A DNA stretch of 64,000 bases, from the NCBI RefSeq assembly GCF_030384885.1, contig NZ_CP128613.1; one strand, written 5' to 3'. The notes below the pieces were generated by a model that made no database searches, was not told the DNA's origin, and saw only the letters and a list, made by a program, of their open reading frames with translations. Origin of the DNA: Escherichia coli (lineage in GTDB: Bacteria; Pseudomonadota; Gammaproteobacteria; Enterobacterales; Enterobacteriaceae). Of this stretch, positions 175-35,467 are shown one piece after another. A program made the translations under genes and the position numbers. The stretch's first letter is position 1, and every line of letters starts with the position of its first letter.

Positions 175-430
175 CGCATCAGGCATCAACGCACGAACGC
201 CGGATGCGGCGTGAACGCCTTATCCTGCCTACCGAACCCGCACCGATTGTAGGCATGATAAGACGCGCAAGCGTCGCATCAGGCATCAACGCACGAACGC
301 CGGATGCGGCGTGAAAGCCTTATCCAGCCTACCGAACCCGCACCGATTGTAGGCATGATAAGACGTGTAAGCGTCGCATCAGGCATCAGCGCACGAGCGC
401 CTGGTGCGGCGTAAACGCCTTATACGCCTA
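175..430. repeat. Tandem REP/BIME-type palindromic repeats, about 2.5 copies of a ~101 bp unit
   Basis: Near-identical blocks (gccggatgcggcgtgaacgcctta... / cgcatcaggcatcaacgcacgaacgcc...) recur with ~101 bp period; matches the REP consensus family. Confidence 0.7.
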
Positions 431-436
431 AAAACA

Positions 437-1708
437 TTAAACCCGCAATAATGCGCTTCCAAGATAATCGTTCGTGTCCTTCACACCCGGCAGCGCAAAG
501 AAATAGCCGCCACCGATGGGTTTAACGTATTCCTCCAGCGCCTCGCCATTCAACCTTTTTTGTACTGTCAGGAAGCCCTTTTCCAGATCGTGTTGGTAGC
601 AGACAAACAGCAACCCCATATCCAGTTGCCCGGAGTTGGTAACACCCAACGAATAACTGTAGCCACGACGCAGCATCAAACTAGACTCGCTCTCCGTCGT
701 GCGGGGATTCGCCAGCCGGATATGGCTGTCCAGCGCGATCACCTTCCCTTCCGGATCACTGGCGTAATCGGGAACATCATGCTCATGCTGCATTCCCAGC
801 GGCGCGCCGGTTTGTTTATCACGCCCAAATATCGTCTGCTGTTCTTTCAGCGGCGTTCTGTCCCAAAACTCCACCCGAAACTGAATCAACCGCACCGCCT
901 GGTAGCTGCCGCCGATAGCCCAGGCAGGCTCCTGCTGATCTGCCGTCACCCACACCACTTGTTGCATCAACTTATCATTCTGGCTATCGGGATTGGCAGT
1001 GCCGTCTTTGAAACCCAGCAAATTTATCGGCGTCTCTTTACCTTTACTACGCGCCGCGTGGTCGGAAATAAACCCTTCCCGCTTCCAACGCACGCTGAGC
1101 AAATCCGGCGTGTGTTTGATGATATCGCGCAGCGCATGGATCACCGTGTCCTGGGTGTTGGCGCAAATTTGTAGCAACACATCACCATGACATAACGCCG
1201 CATCCAGCGAGTCGTTGGGGAAACGCGTCATCTTCTGCAACTTTTTCGGCATCTGTGGCGCAAGACCAAACCGTTCATCAAACAACGAGTGACCAACTGA
1301 CAACGTGATGGTGAGATTATCGGGCGCAATGTAGCCGCCAAGAATGCCGGAATCGCGTGGTGGCAGGCGTGGATTTGGCGTTTCTGGTGCCGCTCCGCCC
1401 TGAGTCAGAAAAGCAAAACGCTGAGTCAACAAGCGAAACAATCGCTCAAGATCAGCTTTATCGCTGGCAAGCACATCAAACGCCACCAGCATCATTGCCG
1501 CCTGCTGCGGCGTCAGAATACCCGCCTGATGTTCGCCATAAAACGGCTGCGCTTCACTGCGCGCATCCGGTGAAAGCGTCCCCGGCGCACTTAGTGGTTT
1601 TTGCGCATGCGCTACCGGGCAACTTCCCGCCAGTGCCAGCGCGCCAATCCCTTTCAGTAAACGTCGGCGTGACGGTTTATTCACGCCGTTTTCATCTTCA
1701 TACTGCAT
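437..1708 (-). CDS. efeB: Dye-decolorizing peroxidase / deferrochelatase EfeB (Tat-exported)
   Basis: 423 aa ORF; N-terminal twin-arginine motif [10 protein letters not shown]; sequence recalled as EfeB/YcdB. Confidence 0.93.
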
Positions 1709-1713
1709 AACGC

Positions 1714-2841
1714 TTAATCCAGTCCCAGCACACCGCGAAGTTGCGCCAGATCTTCCGCTAGCGCAGTAATCGGCCCTTTCAGCGCATTACGATCGGCATC
1801 GGTCAATTTGTCGTAGGTTTCAAAACCGTCTTTGGTACGGTATTTCGCCAGAATGGTATCGACCTTTTTGAAGTTAGCATCGACTTTTGCCAGCAGTTCC
1901 GGGTTGGCTTTTTGTAGTTGTGGACGCAGCAGATCGACAATTTTCTGCGAGCCTTCAACGTTAGCCTGGAAGTCCCACAGATCGGTGTGGCTGTAGCGAT
2001 CTTCTTCACCGCTGATTTTGCTGGCTGCCACTTCCTCAATCAGTCCGGCTGCGCCGCCGACCACTTTTGAAGGTGGGAAAGCCAGTTCACTGATGCGTTT
2101 TTGCAAATCGACCACATCGGTATAAAGCTGGTCAGCATACTGATCCATTCCTTTGGTGGTATTGTCGCCAAACAATGCTTTTTCCAGACGGTGGAAACCG
2201 GTGAATTTCGGATCGGCGGCTTTTTGCTCGTAATCATCTTCACGGGCGTCAATGCTGCCATCCAGATCGGAGAAAAGTTCAGCAATCGGTTCGATGCGCT
2301 CATAGTGCTGGCGCGTCGGCGCATACAGTGCTTTCGCTTTTTCGATATCGCCTGCTTTAATAGCGTCGGTAAAGGCTTTGGTGTCGGTCACCAGTTGCGT
2401 GGTTTCCGCCATGACATACGCTTTATATGCAGTAATTGCACCACCAAGACTTAACAGCGCATCACTTTGCGCCGCATCCGCCGTTGCTTCACCTTTGACG
2501 ATCAACTTCCCTTTCGGGTTAGTCAGCAGACCGCAGGTCATATCGTATTCGCCAGGCTGTAAATTCGCCGTCATTTTCTGGCTAAAACCAGGGGCGATAT
2601 TTTCCCGCTCTTCCACCACCATCACGCCTTTGAGGATCTCCCACTCCAGCGCCTTCTGGCTATGGTTCTGAATAATGAACTGTGTTTTCCCGGCGTTAAC
2701 CGTAATGGTCATCGGTTCGCACTGCTTATCTGTCACAGTGACTTTGACCTGCGGAATATCAGCGGCGTTAGCCATAAAAGCAGAAGAGAACAGCGCAGCC
2801 ACGCTCAACTGCAATGCGTTACGGCGGAAGTTAATGGTCAT
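1714..2841 (-). CDS. efeO: Periplasmic iron-uptake protein EfeO
   Basis: 375 aa ORF with signal peptide; 6 bp upstream of efeB, operon order efeU-efeO-efeB. Confidence 0.93.
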
Positions 2842-2898: not shown

Positions 2899-3729
2899 TT
2901 ACGCGGAGCGAGACGCTGTCGCCCCTGCGCGCGGCGGCAGAGCAAATGCCACCAGCGCCGGGATGAGATAAATAAACCAGACGGCGACTTCGCTGACGCT
3001 CGGCGCTTCCTGATAACCAAAGATACCTTCCATCAGCGTACCGAACAGCGAGTGAGTTGAGAGCACCGCGCTCATATCGAAGGCGATTTCCTGAAAGTGG
3101 TTCCACAGCCCGGCTTCATGAAACGCGCGAATAGCACCTGCCGCCAGCCCTGCGGCGACGAAGAGAATAAACAGGCTGGTCCATTTAAAAAACGCGCCAA
3201 GATTGAGGCGAATACCGCCCCAGTAGAGCAGGAAGCCGAGCACCACGGCTGTAGCAAGACCGAGCATTGCACCCAGCGGAGGCCAGATACCGACATCTTG
3301 TTGAAACGCCGCCAGCAGGAAAAAGACCGACTCCAGTCCTTCCCTTGCAACGGCAAAAAAGACCATCATCACCAGCGCCCAGCCATGATGATTCCCACGC
3401 TGCAATGCGCTATCGACTGCCTGTTCCAGTTGCACTTTGACGTTGCGCGACACTTTACGCATCCAGAAAACCATCCAGGTGAGGATCACCACGGCAATCA
3501 CCGCCACGATACCTTCGAACAATTCCTGCTCTTTTTGCGGAAATTCGCCGGTAGTTTCATTAATGAATATACCCAGCCCCAGGCACAACGCAGCGGCTAG
3601 CAACACGCCAATCCACATGACACCAATCCATCGACCTCGCTGGGTACGCTTAAGATAGCTGGCAATCAGGCTGACAATCAGCGCGGCTTCAAGTCCTTCG
3701 CGCAACATAATGAGAAACGGAACAAACAT
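2899..3729 (-). CDS. efeU: Ferrous iron permease EfeU (FTR1 family), apparently intact
   Basis: Continuous ORF; 276 aa from MFVPF; REGLE motifs (REGLEAAL, REGLESVF) typical of FTR1 permeases; no frameshift seen. Confidence 0.85.
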   Translation of the reverse strand: MFVPFLIMLREGLEAALIVSLIASYLKRTQRGRWIGVMWIGVLLAAALCLGLGIFINETTGEFPQKEQELFEGIVAVIAVVILTWMVFWMRKVSRNVKVQLEQAVDSALQRGNHHGWALVMMVFFAVAREGLESVFFLLAAFQQDVGIWPPLGAMLGLATAVVLGFLLYWGGIRLNLGAFFKWTSLFILFVAAGLAAGAIRAFHEAGLWNHFQEIAFDMSAVLSTHSLFGTLMEGIFGYQEAPSVSEVAVWFIYLIPALVAFALPPRAGATASRSA

Positions 3730-3948
3730 GCCACCCACCCTTAAACGTTTTTCTGAGTCAATCTATGCAAAGAAAAGTAAATCGCAGTGATAGCGATTAT
3801 CATTACGGTGAAGAAAAACACAAGCGGAATGTAGTGATAATGATGAGGAAATGTAAATTTTATTTGAGAGAAAATGCAGAGGGCAATCACTGATTGCCCT
3901 CTGCCTGCTTCTGATTATGGCGTGGAATTTTCGGTAAAACGCCTTCCC

Positions 3949-14922: not shown

Positions 14923-16251
14923 ATGGCAATGTTCGGTTTTCCTCACTGGCAGTTAAAATCGACCTCTACAGAGAGCGGCGTGGTCGCGCCGAATGAACGA
15001 TTGCCGTTTGCTCAGACGGCAATAATGGGCGTTCAACACGCGGTGGCGATGTTTGGCGCGACGGTGTTAATGCCGATTCTGATGGGGCTGGATCCCAACC
15101 TTTCCATTTTAATGTCGGGGATCGGCACGTTACTGTTTTTCTTTATTACCGGCGGGCGCGTCCCCAGTTATCTCGGTTCCAGCGCGGCTTTTGTCGGCGT
15201 GGTGATCGCCGCGACGGGCTTTAATGGTCAGGGAATTAATCCGAATATCAGCATCGCGCTGGGCGGGATTATCGCCTGTGGGCTGGTTTATACCGTCATT
15301 GGCCTGGTGGTGATGAAAATCGGTACGCGCTGGATTGAACGACTAATGCCGCCGGTTGTGACGGGTGCGGTGGTGATGGCGATTGGCCTGAACTTAGCGC
15401 CTATCGCAGTGAAAAGTGTATCGGCTTCGGCCTTTGATAGTTGGATGGCGGTAATGACGGTGCTGTGTATTGGGCTGGTGGCGGTGTTTACCCGTGGCAT
15501 GATCCAGCGATTATTGATTCTCGTAGGATTAATTGTCGCCTGTCTGCTGTATGGCGTGATGACCAACGTTTTAGGGCTGGGAAAAGCCGTCGATTTTACT
15601 CTCGTCAGCCATGCTGCCTGGTTCGGTCTGCCACATTTTTCCACTCCTGCTTTTAATGGTCAGGCAATGATGCTGATTGCGCCCGTGGCGGTTATTCTGG
15701 TGGCGGAAAACTTAGGTCATCTGAAGGCGGTAGCCGGGATGACCGGACGCAATATGGACCCGTATATGGGGCGGGCATTCGTAGGCGATGGGCTGGCAAC
15801 AATGCTTTCGGGTTCTGTCGGCGGTAGCGGCGTGACCACCTATGCTGAAAATATCGGTGTGATGGCTGTGACAAAAGTCTATTCGACGCTGGTGTTTGTT
15901 GCTGCCGCCGTCATCGCCATGCTGTTGGGCTTTTCGCCGAAATTTGGCGCACTAATCCATACCATTCCGGCACCGGTGATTGGTGGTGCGTCAATTGTTG
16001 TGTTCGGGTTAATTGCCGTCGCAGGCGCGCGGATCTGGGTACAAAATCGTGTGGATTTAAGTCAGAACGGTAATTTGATTATGGTCGCAGTAACCTTAGT
16101 GCTGGGTGATGGTGATTTTGCTCTCACGCTGGGCGGTTTTACGTTGGGAGGGATCGGTACAGCAACCTTTGGCGCGATTTTACTCAATGCGTTGTTGAGC
16201 AGAAGGTTGGTTGACGTTCCTCCGCCAGAAGTTGTTCATCAGGAACCATAA
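14923..16251 (+). CDS. rutG: Pyrimidine permease RutG (NCS2 family)
   Basis: 442 aa from MAMFGFPHWQ; AGGAGA RBS; multi-pass membrane protein. Confidence 0.9.
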   Translation: MAMFGFPHWQLKSTSTESGVVAPNERLPFAQTAIMGVQHAVAMFGATVLMPILMGLDPNLSILMSGIGTLLFFFITGGRVPSYLGSSAAFVGVVIAATGFNGQGINPNISIALGGIIACGLVYTVIGLVVMKIGTRWIERLMPPVVTGAVVMAIGLNLAPIAVKSVSASAFDSWMAVMTVLCIGLVAVFTRGMIQRLLILVGLIVACLLYGVMTNVLGLGKAVDFTLVSHAAWFGLPHFSTPAFNGQAMMLIAPVAVILVAENLGHLKAVAGMTGRNMDPYMGRAFVGDGLATMLSGSVGGSGVTTYAENIGVMAVTKVYSTLVFVAAAVIAMLLGFSPKFGALIHTIPAPVIGGASIVVFGLIAVAGARIWVQNRVDLSQNGNLIMVAVTLVLGDGDFALTLGGFTLGGIGTATFGAILLNALLSRRLVDVPPPEVVHQEP

Positions 16252-17759: not shown

Positions 17760-18259
17760 CGATTATTCATTGACCAACGTCTCATGTCCTGTTATTACTG
17801 TGAGATATTCAATCACGTTATCAAATAAAAAAATCGATATCATTGCGGTAAGCTTGTTATTGATTATAAATATGGGTAATAAGCGATATCCAGCATGAAT
17901 TTGATTGTACAGGGTATTTCCTATATAGCCATTGGTTAAATCTTGAAGATAAGATACCTCCGGCTGAAAAATCCATCCCGGCAATGAAGGATGTGATATT
18001 TTCGTAATTCTCTTGCAGAATAAACAACCCTGGATACGCTCTGAATACAAGGAAATTTTCCAATAAATTATTTATTCATCAATACTCCCCGGCGAGGATC
18101 ATCAAAATATCTCATTATCTTTTAAAACTGCCCAGCCCGTTATAACGGACGTTATCTGGCGCACGCTGAAGTGGGCATGATACTCACTTTCATTAAAATG
18201 CTCGACATGATTTGCTAATCGCTTAGCTAGATAATTGACGTTCAGTCTGTGCCAAATTT

Positions 18260-18619
18260 TTAGCGAAAAATAGCAAATTTAAGCCGGGAATTTATCAAAG
18301 CATCCTCATTTACTTCACCATGAACAATAAAGTCACGCATAAACTGCAGGTGTTTAATTAATAAAATCCATTCACTTTCAGTAAGATAGTTTTTCCCACG
18401 CAGATTATAATACAGAGATTTGATTAATGGGATCTTCTGCTTATGGCGCTTTGACCGCGCTGAGCACAATATTTGTTCTATCAGGCCAAGCGTCCCTTTC
18501 TGACGCAACCAGCACCGGAGTTCAGACTGCGCGCTAATGCCGCGAGCCACCGACAAATGTATTTGGGTAAGCAATGCGTATAAACCTAATAAAAACGCGT
18601 CGTGATAATACCGCTTCAT
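18260..18619 (-). CDS. Hypothetical basic protein, 119 aa, second gene of the inserted cassette
   Basis: ORF with GAGGTG RBS a few nt before the ATG, 12 bp after the upstream ORF stop; K+R-rich (net charge about +10); no family recognised. Confidence 0.55.
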   Translation of the reverse strand: MKRYYHDAFLLGLYALLTQIHLSVARGISAQSELRCWLRQKGTLGLIEQILCSARSKRHKQKIPLIKSLYYNLRGKNYLTESEWILLIKHLQFMRDFIVHGEVNEDALINSRLKFAIFR

Positions 18620-18631
18620 TACCCACCTCTG

Positions 18632-18970
18632 TTATCGTAATTTTTTAAACAAATAATCATATAAAATTTCGGCAATGAATTCTGCATGTTCACGTCGCAC
18701 AATGACATTCATAACGTAATATTGCGCAGCAATTTCATTGATAAAATGTTCAGGCAGTATGAATACGCGTGCATAAGCCGAGTATATTTCCAGTATTTCA
18801 TTTGAGATGTTTTCAAGATCAACGCAATAATTTGTCACATCATAAAAAAGATTAGCGTATTTTTTATTAATTATGCTAAGGCATATAAATGGGGCATTTA
18901 ATTTTTCACACAATTGCCAGTGCGTTCTTTCATTTTCTCCCTTCCATGTATACTTCATTTTGTCAGCCAT
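18632..18970 (-). CDS. Hypothetical protein, first gene of the inserted cassette (112 aa from ATG 18970; 108 aa from ATG 18958; 122 aa from GTG 19000)
   Basis: ORF in roughly 30-35% GC DNA; start codon ambiguous; no family recognised. Confidence 0.5.
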   Translation of the reverse strand: MADKMKYTWKGENERTHWQLCEKLNAPFICLSIINKKYANLFYDVTNYCVDLENISNEILEIYSAYARVFILPEHFINEIAAQYYVMNVIVRREHAEFIAEILYDYLFKKLR

Positions 18971-19105
18971 CCTTTGATTTACGCGTCTGAAGTTTACCAC
19001 TGTGTCTGGGGTAAACCATGCGTTCTATGGTAAAAATTATACGAGATGTGGCGCTGCGTAATATTCTGCTCCCTCAATATATTTCTGGTGAATATGTTCC
19101 AGGTT

Positions 19106-19138
19106 AATTGGGAAGATCTGCATGTGATCTTCCCAATT
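19106..19138. repeat. Perfect 13 bp inverted repeat with 7 nt loop
   Basis: aattgggaagatc-tgcatgt-gatcttcccaatt, between agp and the cassette. Confidence 0.6.
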
Positions 19139-19167
19139 TTATGACTACAAAATGTCAATAGCCGGGT

Positions 19168-20409
19168 TTATTTCACCGCTTCATTCAACACGCTATCAAA
19201 CTTATCCATTGGGCAGAAACCATCAGCGTCTATCGGGCAGCCGGTTAATTCCAGCGTCACGCGCTGAGCCGGAGCCTGCAACGTTAACGCATCAGCATTA
19301 CGCAACTGTTCCGCACTCTGGTACACATATTCAATTTTCATCAAATCGCGATTAGCTTTGCTGTTATGCCAACGCTGGAAAACGATTTTGCCGCCAATCG
19401 GCGTGCGTTCGTTCTGGTCATGCAACTGATACGGTTTGAAATCCAGTGCCGTTAACAGAGAGGCAATGTTTGAGTCGTGCCCCACCAGCACCGTGATTTT
19501 CGGTGCACTGGCGCGATCTGTCACCAGCGCTTTGTCGATATAACTGACCAGTGGTTTCGCAACATTGCGCGCCACTTCCGGTGAGGTAAACAGGCTATCC
19601 TGGTAACCGTTTTTCAGCTTCGACAACACTTTCCACTGTTGGTCAGATTTGATTTCTCCCCACGCCACCTGATCCATCGGGAAACCTTCGTAGTATTGCA
19701 AAGTAAACGCATCTACCAGCGAGTTGCCGACTTTCAGCGGCCCGGAAACGCCCGGTTCTTGTTGATACTTCGCGCTAAAGGTGTTTTTGCCATCTACAAG
19801 CGAACACTGTTGCTTCTCTTTACAGGCAGGAGAATCTTTATAGTTAACGATTTTTTCCAGTAGCTTGTAGCTGTCGGTAAGCTGGAGTTTGCCGAGCTCT
19901 TTCTCCATTGCCGCCACCGCCTGTTCACTGAATGCGGCGGAATCATCGGTGATCACCGGGTTAAAGGTTGGGTCCATGGTGCCCATTTTTTCCTGGTGGT
20001 GGACTGGAATGTCACACCCAGGGAATGCGCCAGTAATAAAGAACTGCGCGGTTGCGACGGTACGTTGCAGGCTGTTGGCATAGGCATAAACGGTGTCCGG
20101 CGGCGGGCATTCCCCCGAATTCACCATCCCCTGCTCTGCCAGCCACTCACGCATATAGTGGCCCATATACACTTCCAGCACACCGCCTTTGGTGGTGAGC
20201 TGCCCACCGGGGACGTCCCATTCTGGCCATTTATTCGGTGTGGATTGTTCCAGCACACTGCCATTGTTCGCCAGCGGCGCACGTAAGTTATGGCGGCTCA
20301 TTATGAGCACTTGCTGCAACTGATAGCCTTCCGGTACGGTTTGTGCCTGAGCATTTGAAGCGAGTAAAACTATCCCTGCCACAGCTGCGGCGATTAGCGT
20401 TTTGTTCAT
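19168..20409 (-). CDS. agp: Periplasmic glucose-1-phosphatase Agp
   Basis: 413 aa from [10 protein letters not shown]; histidine acid phosphatase motif RHNLRAP. Confidence 0.95.
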
Positions 20410-33749: not shown

Positions 33750-33923
33750 TCACATTATTTTGATTTTGACATCATAGCTTTCAAGCCCAGTCATTTTTTC
33801 TCGTGCGGTGAAGCGAATTTCAGAGACTTCTTTCCCTGTATTCTTGTTCAACTCGGCGATTTTTTGCGCGATAAAGTCGGCGATTTCCGTTTCGGCTTGT
33901 TTTTTTAACTCTTCAATATTCAC
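33750..33923 (-). CDS. gnsA: GnsA (secG null mutant suppressor), 57 aa
   Basis: Manual translation gives (V/M)NIEELKKQAETEIADFIAQKIAELNKNTGKEVSEIRFTAREKMTGLESYDVKIKIM with GTG start and AAGAGG RBS. Confidence 0.8.
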   Translation of the reverse strand: MNIEELKKQAETEIADFIAQKIAELNKNTGKEVSEIRFTAREKMTGLESYDVKIKIM

Positions 33924-34014
33924 TGTTAACCTCTTCTGGTCTTAAAAGACAGCAACACGCCAGTAAGGTGTTGGTTCCCGGTACCCTGGTCAGGTAAGAA
34001 ATGTTATAAGCCAT
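33913..34014 (-). pseudogene. ymcE-like small ORF, apparently lacking the N-terminal part and an ATG start
   Basis: Frame reads ...SWSLFYICLIFFNAVCIVSDNLLIIESLGEMAYNISYLTRVPGTNTLLACCCLLRPEEVNSEY after an in-frame stop at 34117-34119; only ATG is at 34014 (34 aa). Confidence 0.25.
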
Positions 34015-34086
34015 CTCCCCTAAAGATTCAATAATCAACAGGTTATCGCTTACTATACATACAGCGTTGAAGAAAATAAGGCAGAT

Positions 34087-34112
34087 ATAAAAAAGGCTCC
34101 ACGAGGGAGCCT
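34087..34112 (-). terminator. Intrinsic terminator downstream of cspG
   Basis: Hairpin ggctcc-acgag-ggagcc followed by a T-run on the minus strand. Confidence 0.65.
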
Positions 34113-34315
34113 GATCTTATTTTGTGAAATCCAGCGGCGCATGGTCAGTGCGTATTTGCAGCGCGACGTTATCAAAGGTGATCATCGTCGATTTACAAAA
34201 AATACACTTTGCCCCTAAAGGATTTCGCTCCGTCACATCGAATGCCGATGTGCGGTACTGTGAACCATGACAACATGGACAGCGGAAATGGAGATGTTGA
34301 GTAATAACGGCAACC

Positions 34316-35026: not shown

Positions 35027-35467
35027 GATGACGCAGCTTGTTTAAAGCTGGCTGTTTTTATTAAAAAAGCTCAATAGTCAATATCGCACATTATAACAAA
35101 AGTTACTTTCACCCCAGAAAACAAATCCATTTGGCCGAATATCTCTGCACCTAATAGTTATAAATGCTACTTAACAGTCAATCATAGTACCGCTTGAAAC
35201 TATATCACCAACAATAGTTAATAGCTTTCTTAACAATTTTCTTATCTTTAATTTATATTTTTCTAAGATTTATCTTGTGCTCACAAGTCGTATTTCCAGA
35301 GGGGAATAGTTAACAATCTTATATTTCCCTCTGCGCGCCTTCCCCACCCGCAGTATATAGTGCTAGCGGTATGCGGAAAGGGAGATTTCACAAGGATGTT
35401 ATACTCAAAGTAGACAATCCTGATCTCAAGCGTACGTATTGTCCATGCGATGAATAAAGGAAAAGTT

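Follow-up and report, generated by a model that had tools for sequence, protein, structure and literature searches.

The closest described counterparts of the locus studied here are the EfeUOB systems of other Escherichia coli strains and, at a greater distance, the iron permease Ftr1p of Saccharomyces cerevisiae. In the accounts of Cao et al. (2007) and of Grosse et al. (2006), as cited in the reviewed papers, EfeUOB (YcdNOB) is described as a Fur-repressed, acid-induced and CpxAR-regulated Fe2+ uptake system, made up of the Ftr1p-like permease EfeU, the Tat-exported haem peroxidase EfeB and the periplasmic cupredoxin-M75 protein EfeO. The reviewed papers present EfeU as an inner-membrane permease with seven helices, belonging to the Ftr1p/OFeT family. 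The yeast member of this family, Ftr1p, works with the multicopper ferroxidase Fet3p, whereas the partners of EfeU are EfeO (cupredoxin and M75) and EfeB (DyP peroxidase); oxidase-coupled iron permeation is common to both according to the literature, and the similarity between the two permeases is distant, about 25% (PMC3577903). The EfeUOB system of E. coli O157:H7 is reported to be functional (PMC3577903). The MG1655 transporter is non-functional, which has been blamed on a frameshift in efeU (PMC2808357), and the underlying deletion in codon 36 of K-12 is experimentally documented (PMC2808357, PMC3577903). Authors disagree on whether Fe2+ or haem iron is the physiological substrate of EfeUOB.

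In the 64,000-nucleotide stretch of DNA analysed here (the window), efeU is very probably wild type and heads an intact efeU-efeO-efeB operon. The list of open reading frames gives an unbroken minus-strand frame at 2899-3738, which counts 279 aa from a GTG codon (MGGMFVPF...). The ATG at 3729 yields the 276-aa EfeU with the N-terminus MFVPF, and the same start is used in RefSeq for a near-identical record (efeU 2899-3729). The three additional residues, MGG, are probably not translated, the extension overlapping the Shine-Dalgarno-like sequence GGGTGGGTGG. A first-pass annotation of this DNA had described a continuous efeU of 276 aa from MFVPF with both REGLE motifs, a description borne out by the list of reading frames and by the positions of the motifs. 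Its coordinates fit the 279-aa GTG frame and its text the 276-aa ATG protein, a harmless mismatch, and it gave no strand for the gene.

Profile searches placed the product in the FTR1 family over its full length. The Pfam FTR1 profile (PF03239) matched residues 1-275 along profile positions 1-283 of 284 (E = 1.8e-89; 300 bits, cutoff 25.3), the NCBIfam EfeU equivalog scored 331 bits for a cutoff of 255, and TIGR00145 scored 351.7 bits for a cutoff of 303.8. Judged by these Pfam and NCBIfam matches, a chance origin of the reading frame is excluded. Kyte-Doolittle analysis revealed seven hydrophobic segments, at about residues 1-24, 32-61, 68-94, 118-141, 146-175, 175-204 and 242-268. A pair of REXXE motifs, one in helix 1 and the other in helix 4, is taken to form the iron path in the Ftr1p/OFeT family, and the two motifs of EfeU fall in the corresponding segments of this predicted layout, as expected of a member. 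A PDB sequence search with EfeU gave no match at E<=0.01, so the geometry of helices and motifs is read from hydropathy alone. The full-length profile match and the two REXXE motifs, taken together, assign the predicted protein to the FTR1/OFeT family (PF03239). Ftr1p of S. cerevisiae likewise carries the Pfam FTR1 domain, seven hydrophobic segments, and REXXE in the first and fourth of them.

The two partner genes are also complete. EfeO matched its NCBIfam model at 774 bits and EfeB the TIGR01412 tat_substr_1 equivalog at 613 bits, both above the equivalog cutoffs; the NCBIfam name for the EfeB family is "deferrochelatase/peroxidase subunit". The domain composition is that of EfeUOB, with an N-terminal cupredoxin and a C-terminal M75 domain in EfeO, while EfeB combines DyP peroxidase domains and a Tat signal, the twin-arginine motif SRRRLLKG lying close to the EfeB N-terminus. 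Compared with K-12, EfeO differs at 2 amino acids and EfeB at 13. Gene order follows that of the described system as well, efeU, efeO and efeB being adjacent and uninterrupted on one strand (minus) and separated by 57 and 5 nt. Elsewhere in the collection, the match in NZ_CM128604.1 (strain E200139) stops early and the features beneath it are efeU and efeB without efeO, so that this strain may have lost efeO. The features of the locus and of the surrounding window are collected in the table.

Table. Features located in the window and, by region, nucleotide identity to E. coli MG1655.
Feature	Position	Strand	Evidence	Identity to MG1655
efeU CDS, 276 aa + stop, FTR1/OFeT-family inner-membrane iron permease	2899..3729	-	ORF, Pfam, NCBIfam, RefSeq, UniProt	
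5' extension of the mechanical efeU ORF to an in-frame GTG (+MGG)	3730..3738	-	ORF list	
REXXE motif 1 (REGLE, residues 10-14), hydrophobic segment 1	3688..3702	-	motif + hydropathy	
REXXE motif 2 (REGLE, residues 129-133), hydrophobic segment 4	3331..3345	-	motif + hydropathy	
GG of codon 36 (GGT, Gly36), K-12 frameshift site; both G kept here	3623..3624	-	alignment, literature	
efeO, periplasmic cupredoxin + M75/imelysin protein, 375 aa, intact	1714..2841	-	Pfam Cupredoxin_1, Peptidase_M75	
efeB, Tat-exported DyP-type haem peroxidase/deferrochelatase, 423 aa, intact	437..1708	-	Pfam Dyp_perox_N, Dyp_perox_C	
Fur-box-like CGTAATGATAATCGCTATC, 15/19 to consensus, 60-78 nt upstream of ATG	3789..3807	-	best intergenic match	
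13-bp hairpin then ATTTTCTCTC, just downstream of putP	3876..3904	-	hairpin search	
Hypothetical gene in yccJ-agp insert, 119 aa	18260-18619	-		
Hypothetical gene in yccJ-agp insert, 108 aa, adjoins the first	18632-18958	-		
efeUOB region				94.2%
put-rut region				95.6%
wrbA-yccJ region				98.3%
agp to cspH region				94.5%
gfc to sxy region, 28.6 kb				97.4%

The K-12 gene (ycdN, b4490) is the orthologous locus, with shared neighbours and a near-identical proximal promoter. In MG1655 it is annotated as a pseudogene of 830 bp (1081356-1082185), and in the K-12-like strain JB41 the efeU annotation carries the note "frameshifted". Global alignment of the 831-nt efeU of the window with the 830-nt MG1655 sequence revealed 39 mismatches and exactly one gap. 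Of the two G residues at nucleotides 106-107 of the reading frame, MG1655 retains a single one, reading ATT-GTGTG where the window reads ATTGGTGTC, and beyond the deletion its frame continues as WIV to a stop at codon 37, leaving a protein truncated at 36 residues. The single-G deletion that defines the K-12-type cryptic allele is absent from the window, which carries GGT. The first-pass annotation had stated that K-12 efeU is frameshifted and non-functional, and had allowed that the K-12 sequence might turn out to be the same as that of the window. The gap at codon 36 located by this alignment, the pseudogene annotation and the published work (PMC2808357) support this statement; the two sequences are not the same.

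Once the frame of K-12 efeU is restored, the 39 substitutions are without exception synonymous (dS 0.22, dN 0) and the 276 codons specify unchanged residues. The frame-restored pseudogene would encode the same 276 residues as the gene of the window and as EfeU of O157:H7. No secondary decay is visible in the K-12 pseudogene, so the lesion looks recent. For efeO, efeB and putP, comparison with K-12 gave dN/dS values of 0.02-0.05; together with the dN of 0 in efeU, these values indicate strong purifying selection on the operon in the lineage of the window. The encoded EfeU is 100% identical over all 276 residues to UniProt EFEU_ECO57 from O157:H7, where the gene order efeU-efeO-efeB is the same and the partners are intact, and this exact protein sequence occurs on at least 1,000 contigs.

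The distribution of the two alleles was examined among complete E. coli genomes, 5,417 of 5,426 of which contain the efeU locus. Megablast with the K-12 59-mer across the deletion returned nearly all genomes, the gapped extension bridging the 1-bp indel, and the alleles were separated by spans of 59 or 60 bp. An exact match to the 59-mer was found in 368 of the 5,417 matching records, and all other full-length sampled matches span 60 bp and therefore contain the extra base. Every one of the 64 deletion-allele records listed has a K-12 name, a laboratory source or a K-12-like chromosome size; among them are MG1655, DH5alpha, C600, J53, NCM3722 and ER1709, and only WCHEC035053S1G0 and "strain 19213" have no explicit K-12 label. 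The mutation that breaks efeU appears private to K-12, an intact copy being the norm of the species. This agrees with the earlier suggestion that non-K-12 E. coli such as O157 have an intact efeUOB, as does the identity to EFEU_ECO57. About 93% of complete E. coli genomes are without the K-12 deletion, a figure that covers this deletion alone and is not a count of genes proven intact, and an intact efeU is for that reason weak evidence of genetic background when taken by itself.

Stronger evidence of background comes from the window as a whole. It is colinear with positions 1545700-1609699 of NZ_CP027579.1 (E. coli 2013C-4282, human stool, USA), with 8 substitutions and no indels over 64 kb; the substitutions lie at window positions 16109, 17787, 25714, 31440, 32121, 36030, 37576 and 42841, none of them in efeUOB. 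Over the first 16 kb, 100% identity was found to NZ_CP027579.1 only, the next complete genome reaching 97.8%. Strain 2013C-4282 is listed as a completely sequenced member of Escherichia cryptic clade I (PMC10100065). By identity over the 64-kb window to a genome placed in clade I by core-genome phylogeny, the DNA can be assigned to a cryptic clade I strain near-identical to 2013C-4282. Membership of clade I is also judged by a clade-specific marker gene and by genome-wide average nucleotide identity (over 98.3% within the clade). Producers of Shiga toxin and enterotoxin are reported to be emerging from this clade, which gives context to the other findings in the window. Against most E. coli genomes of the collection, the DNA of the region shows about 94-95% identity, and identity of at least 99% across efeU was reached in only 14 of the 5,417 genomes, which the clade I source explains. 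With respect to O157:H7 EfeU, the protein does not differ and the distinguishing feature is this cryptic clade I origin.

Comparison with K-12 over the whole window leads in the same direction. The window aligns colinearly, in reverse orientation, with MG1655 1021218-1084965, and its identity ranges from 94.2 to 98.3% according to the region, an uneven divergence that suggests a mosaic formed by recombination of clade I with E. coli sensu stricto. The first-pass annotation had proposed a non-K-12 background; the proposal holds and was understated, given the near-identity to 2013C-4282. Three structural differences from K-12 were found: the putP-efeU spacer, an insertion between yccJ and agp, and the missing IS1D upstream of gfcA. 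The latter two had been noticed from the letters of the window, and both could be confirmed. K-12 IS1D (1049778-1050545) has no counterpart at window position ~35435-35443; at this 768-bp IS1D site the flanks are directly joined with an 8-9 bp overlap of the BLAST segments, which would fit an IS1 target duplication in K-12. The additional yccJ-agp DNA measures 1.4 kb (window 17767-19168), has no K-12 counterpart and is present in only 5 of the 5,426 complete E. coli genomes; a Pfam search with its two hypothetical reading frames gave no match. The annotation of the source record gives ymcE (33913-34142) as a frameshifted pseudogene. At window 276-301, overlapping BLAST segments against K-12 (1084665-1084690 and 1084765-1084790) imply roughly 100 additional bp in the efeB-phoH interval of K-12, bordered by a short repeat.

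Upstream of the efeU ATG, a stretch of about 105 bp hardly differs from K-12. The Fur-like box CGTAATGATAATCGCTATC lies in this conserved part and is a candidate Fur site by its match to the consensus; a scan of the whole window for the Fur consensus with at most 3 mismatches returned no site. A sigma-70 scan gave 2 sites for 2.8 expected from shuffled sequence, that is, no promoter above chance. The strong hairpin followed by ATTTTCTCTC is likely the putP terminator and would bound the efeU control region on its upstream side. The putP-efeU spacer measures 219 bp against 542 bp in K-12 and diverges past the proximal ~105 bp (window 3857-3945); an extra ~340 bp of K-12 is absent from it, including the TRIP1b repeat that the literature places 41 bp downstream of putP in K-12. 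With a distal upstream region unlike that of K-12, and lacking these ~340 bp, the regulation of efeU could differ. The altered spacer and the lack of a promoter above chance count in favour of a frame that is intact in a system nevertheless silent or non-functional in this strain, through its distal upstream region or through a defect elsewhere, for example in Tat export or in EfeB with its 13 residue changes. Such a failure is very improbable: the proximal promoter, the Fur-like box and the ribosome-binding region are almost entirely those of K-12, all three genes are under strong purifying selection and pass their equivalog cutoffs, and for some other E. coli genomes the alignment covers the full query, spacer included, at about 94% identity.

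An error of sequencing or assembly in one of the two sequences would also produce a difference of one base, and no assembly error is more frequent than the single-base indel. The affected position lies in a GG dinucleotide and not in a long homopolymer, the identical deletion recurs in hundreds of records while all other full-length sampled matches carry the extra base, and the K-12 lesion is documented, so that the probability of such an error is negligible; the 59-mer census and the megablast spans rule out the intact frame as an assembly artefact. Another possibility concerns the substrate rather than the gene: the intact operon might mainly extract iron from periplasmic haem, with EfeB as deferrochelatase acting together with EfeO and EfeU importing the iron, free Fe2+ being secondary. 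The O157:H7 EfeUOB system is reported to free iron from periplasmic haem and to move it to the cytoplasm without haem uptake, for which a complete EfeU is needed (PMC3577903), and the NCBIfam name of EfeB points the same way. Cao et al. 2007, as cited in the reviewed papers, instead describe a transporter of Fe2+ at low pH. These roles are compatible and inseparable by sequence, and EfeU is the iron permease in either; a mainly haem-directed function is conceivable and rather unlikely. The preferred reading remains that of a wild-type efeU at the head of an intact efeUOB operon.

For this wild-type operon, a mode of action can be proposed from the literature on identical or orthologous proteins. 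Periplasmic Fe2+ would be oxidised with the help of EfeB and/or EfeO, and the oxidised iron would be passed to EfeU and then imported. Expression would be repressed by Fur-Fe, induced by low pH and controlled by CpxAR, as we infer from the same literature. The iron transport activity of EfeU in this strain is likewise deduced from its identity to EFEU_ECO57 and the published work. The lack of any EfeU residue change at dS 0.22 could mean an unusually strict constraint and, separately, the distal region could alter the level or pattern of efeUOB expression; neither is indicated, and we regard these as doubtful, with a small chance of being correct.

An intact efeU and the K-12 defect are textbook and database knowledge, and in this respect the finding is correct and ordinary. 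Beyond this, the analysis contributes only the exact mapping of the K-12 lesion to window coordinates, the allele census and the cryptic clade I source. K-12 efeU differs from that of the window by the lost G of codon 36 with its early stop, by ~340 bp more upstream and by synonymous changes; since K-12 carries this private single-base defect, what is concluded about iron uptake in K-12 does not carry over. By analogy with the described systems, a working EfeUOB system for iron uptake is to be expected in this strain, as in nearly all E. coli.
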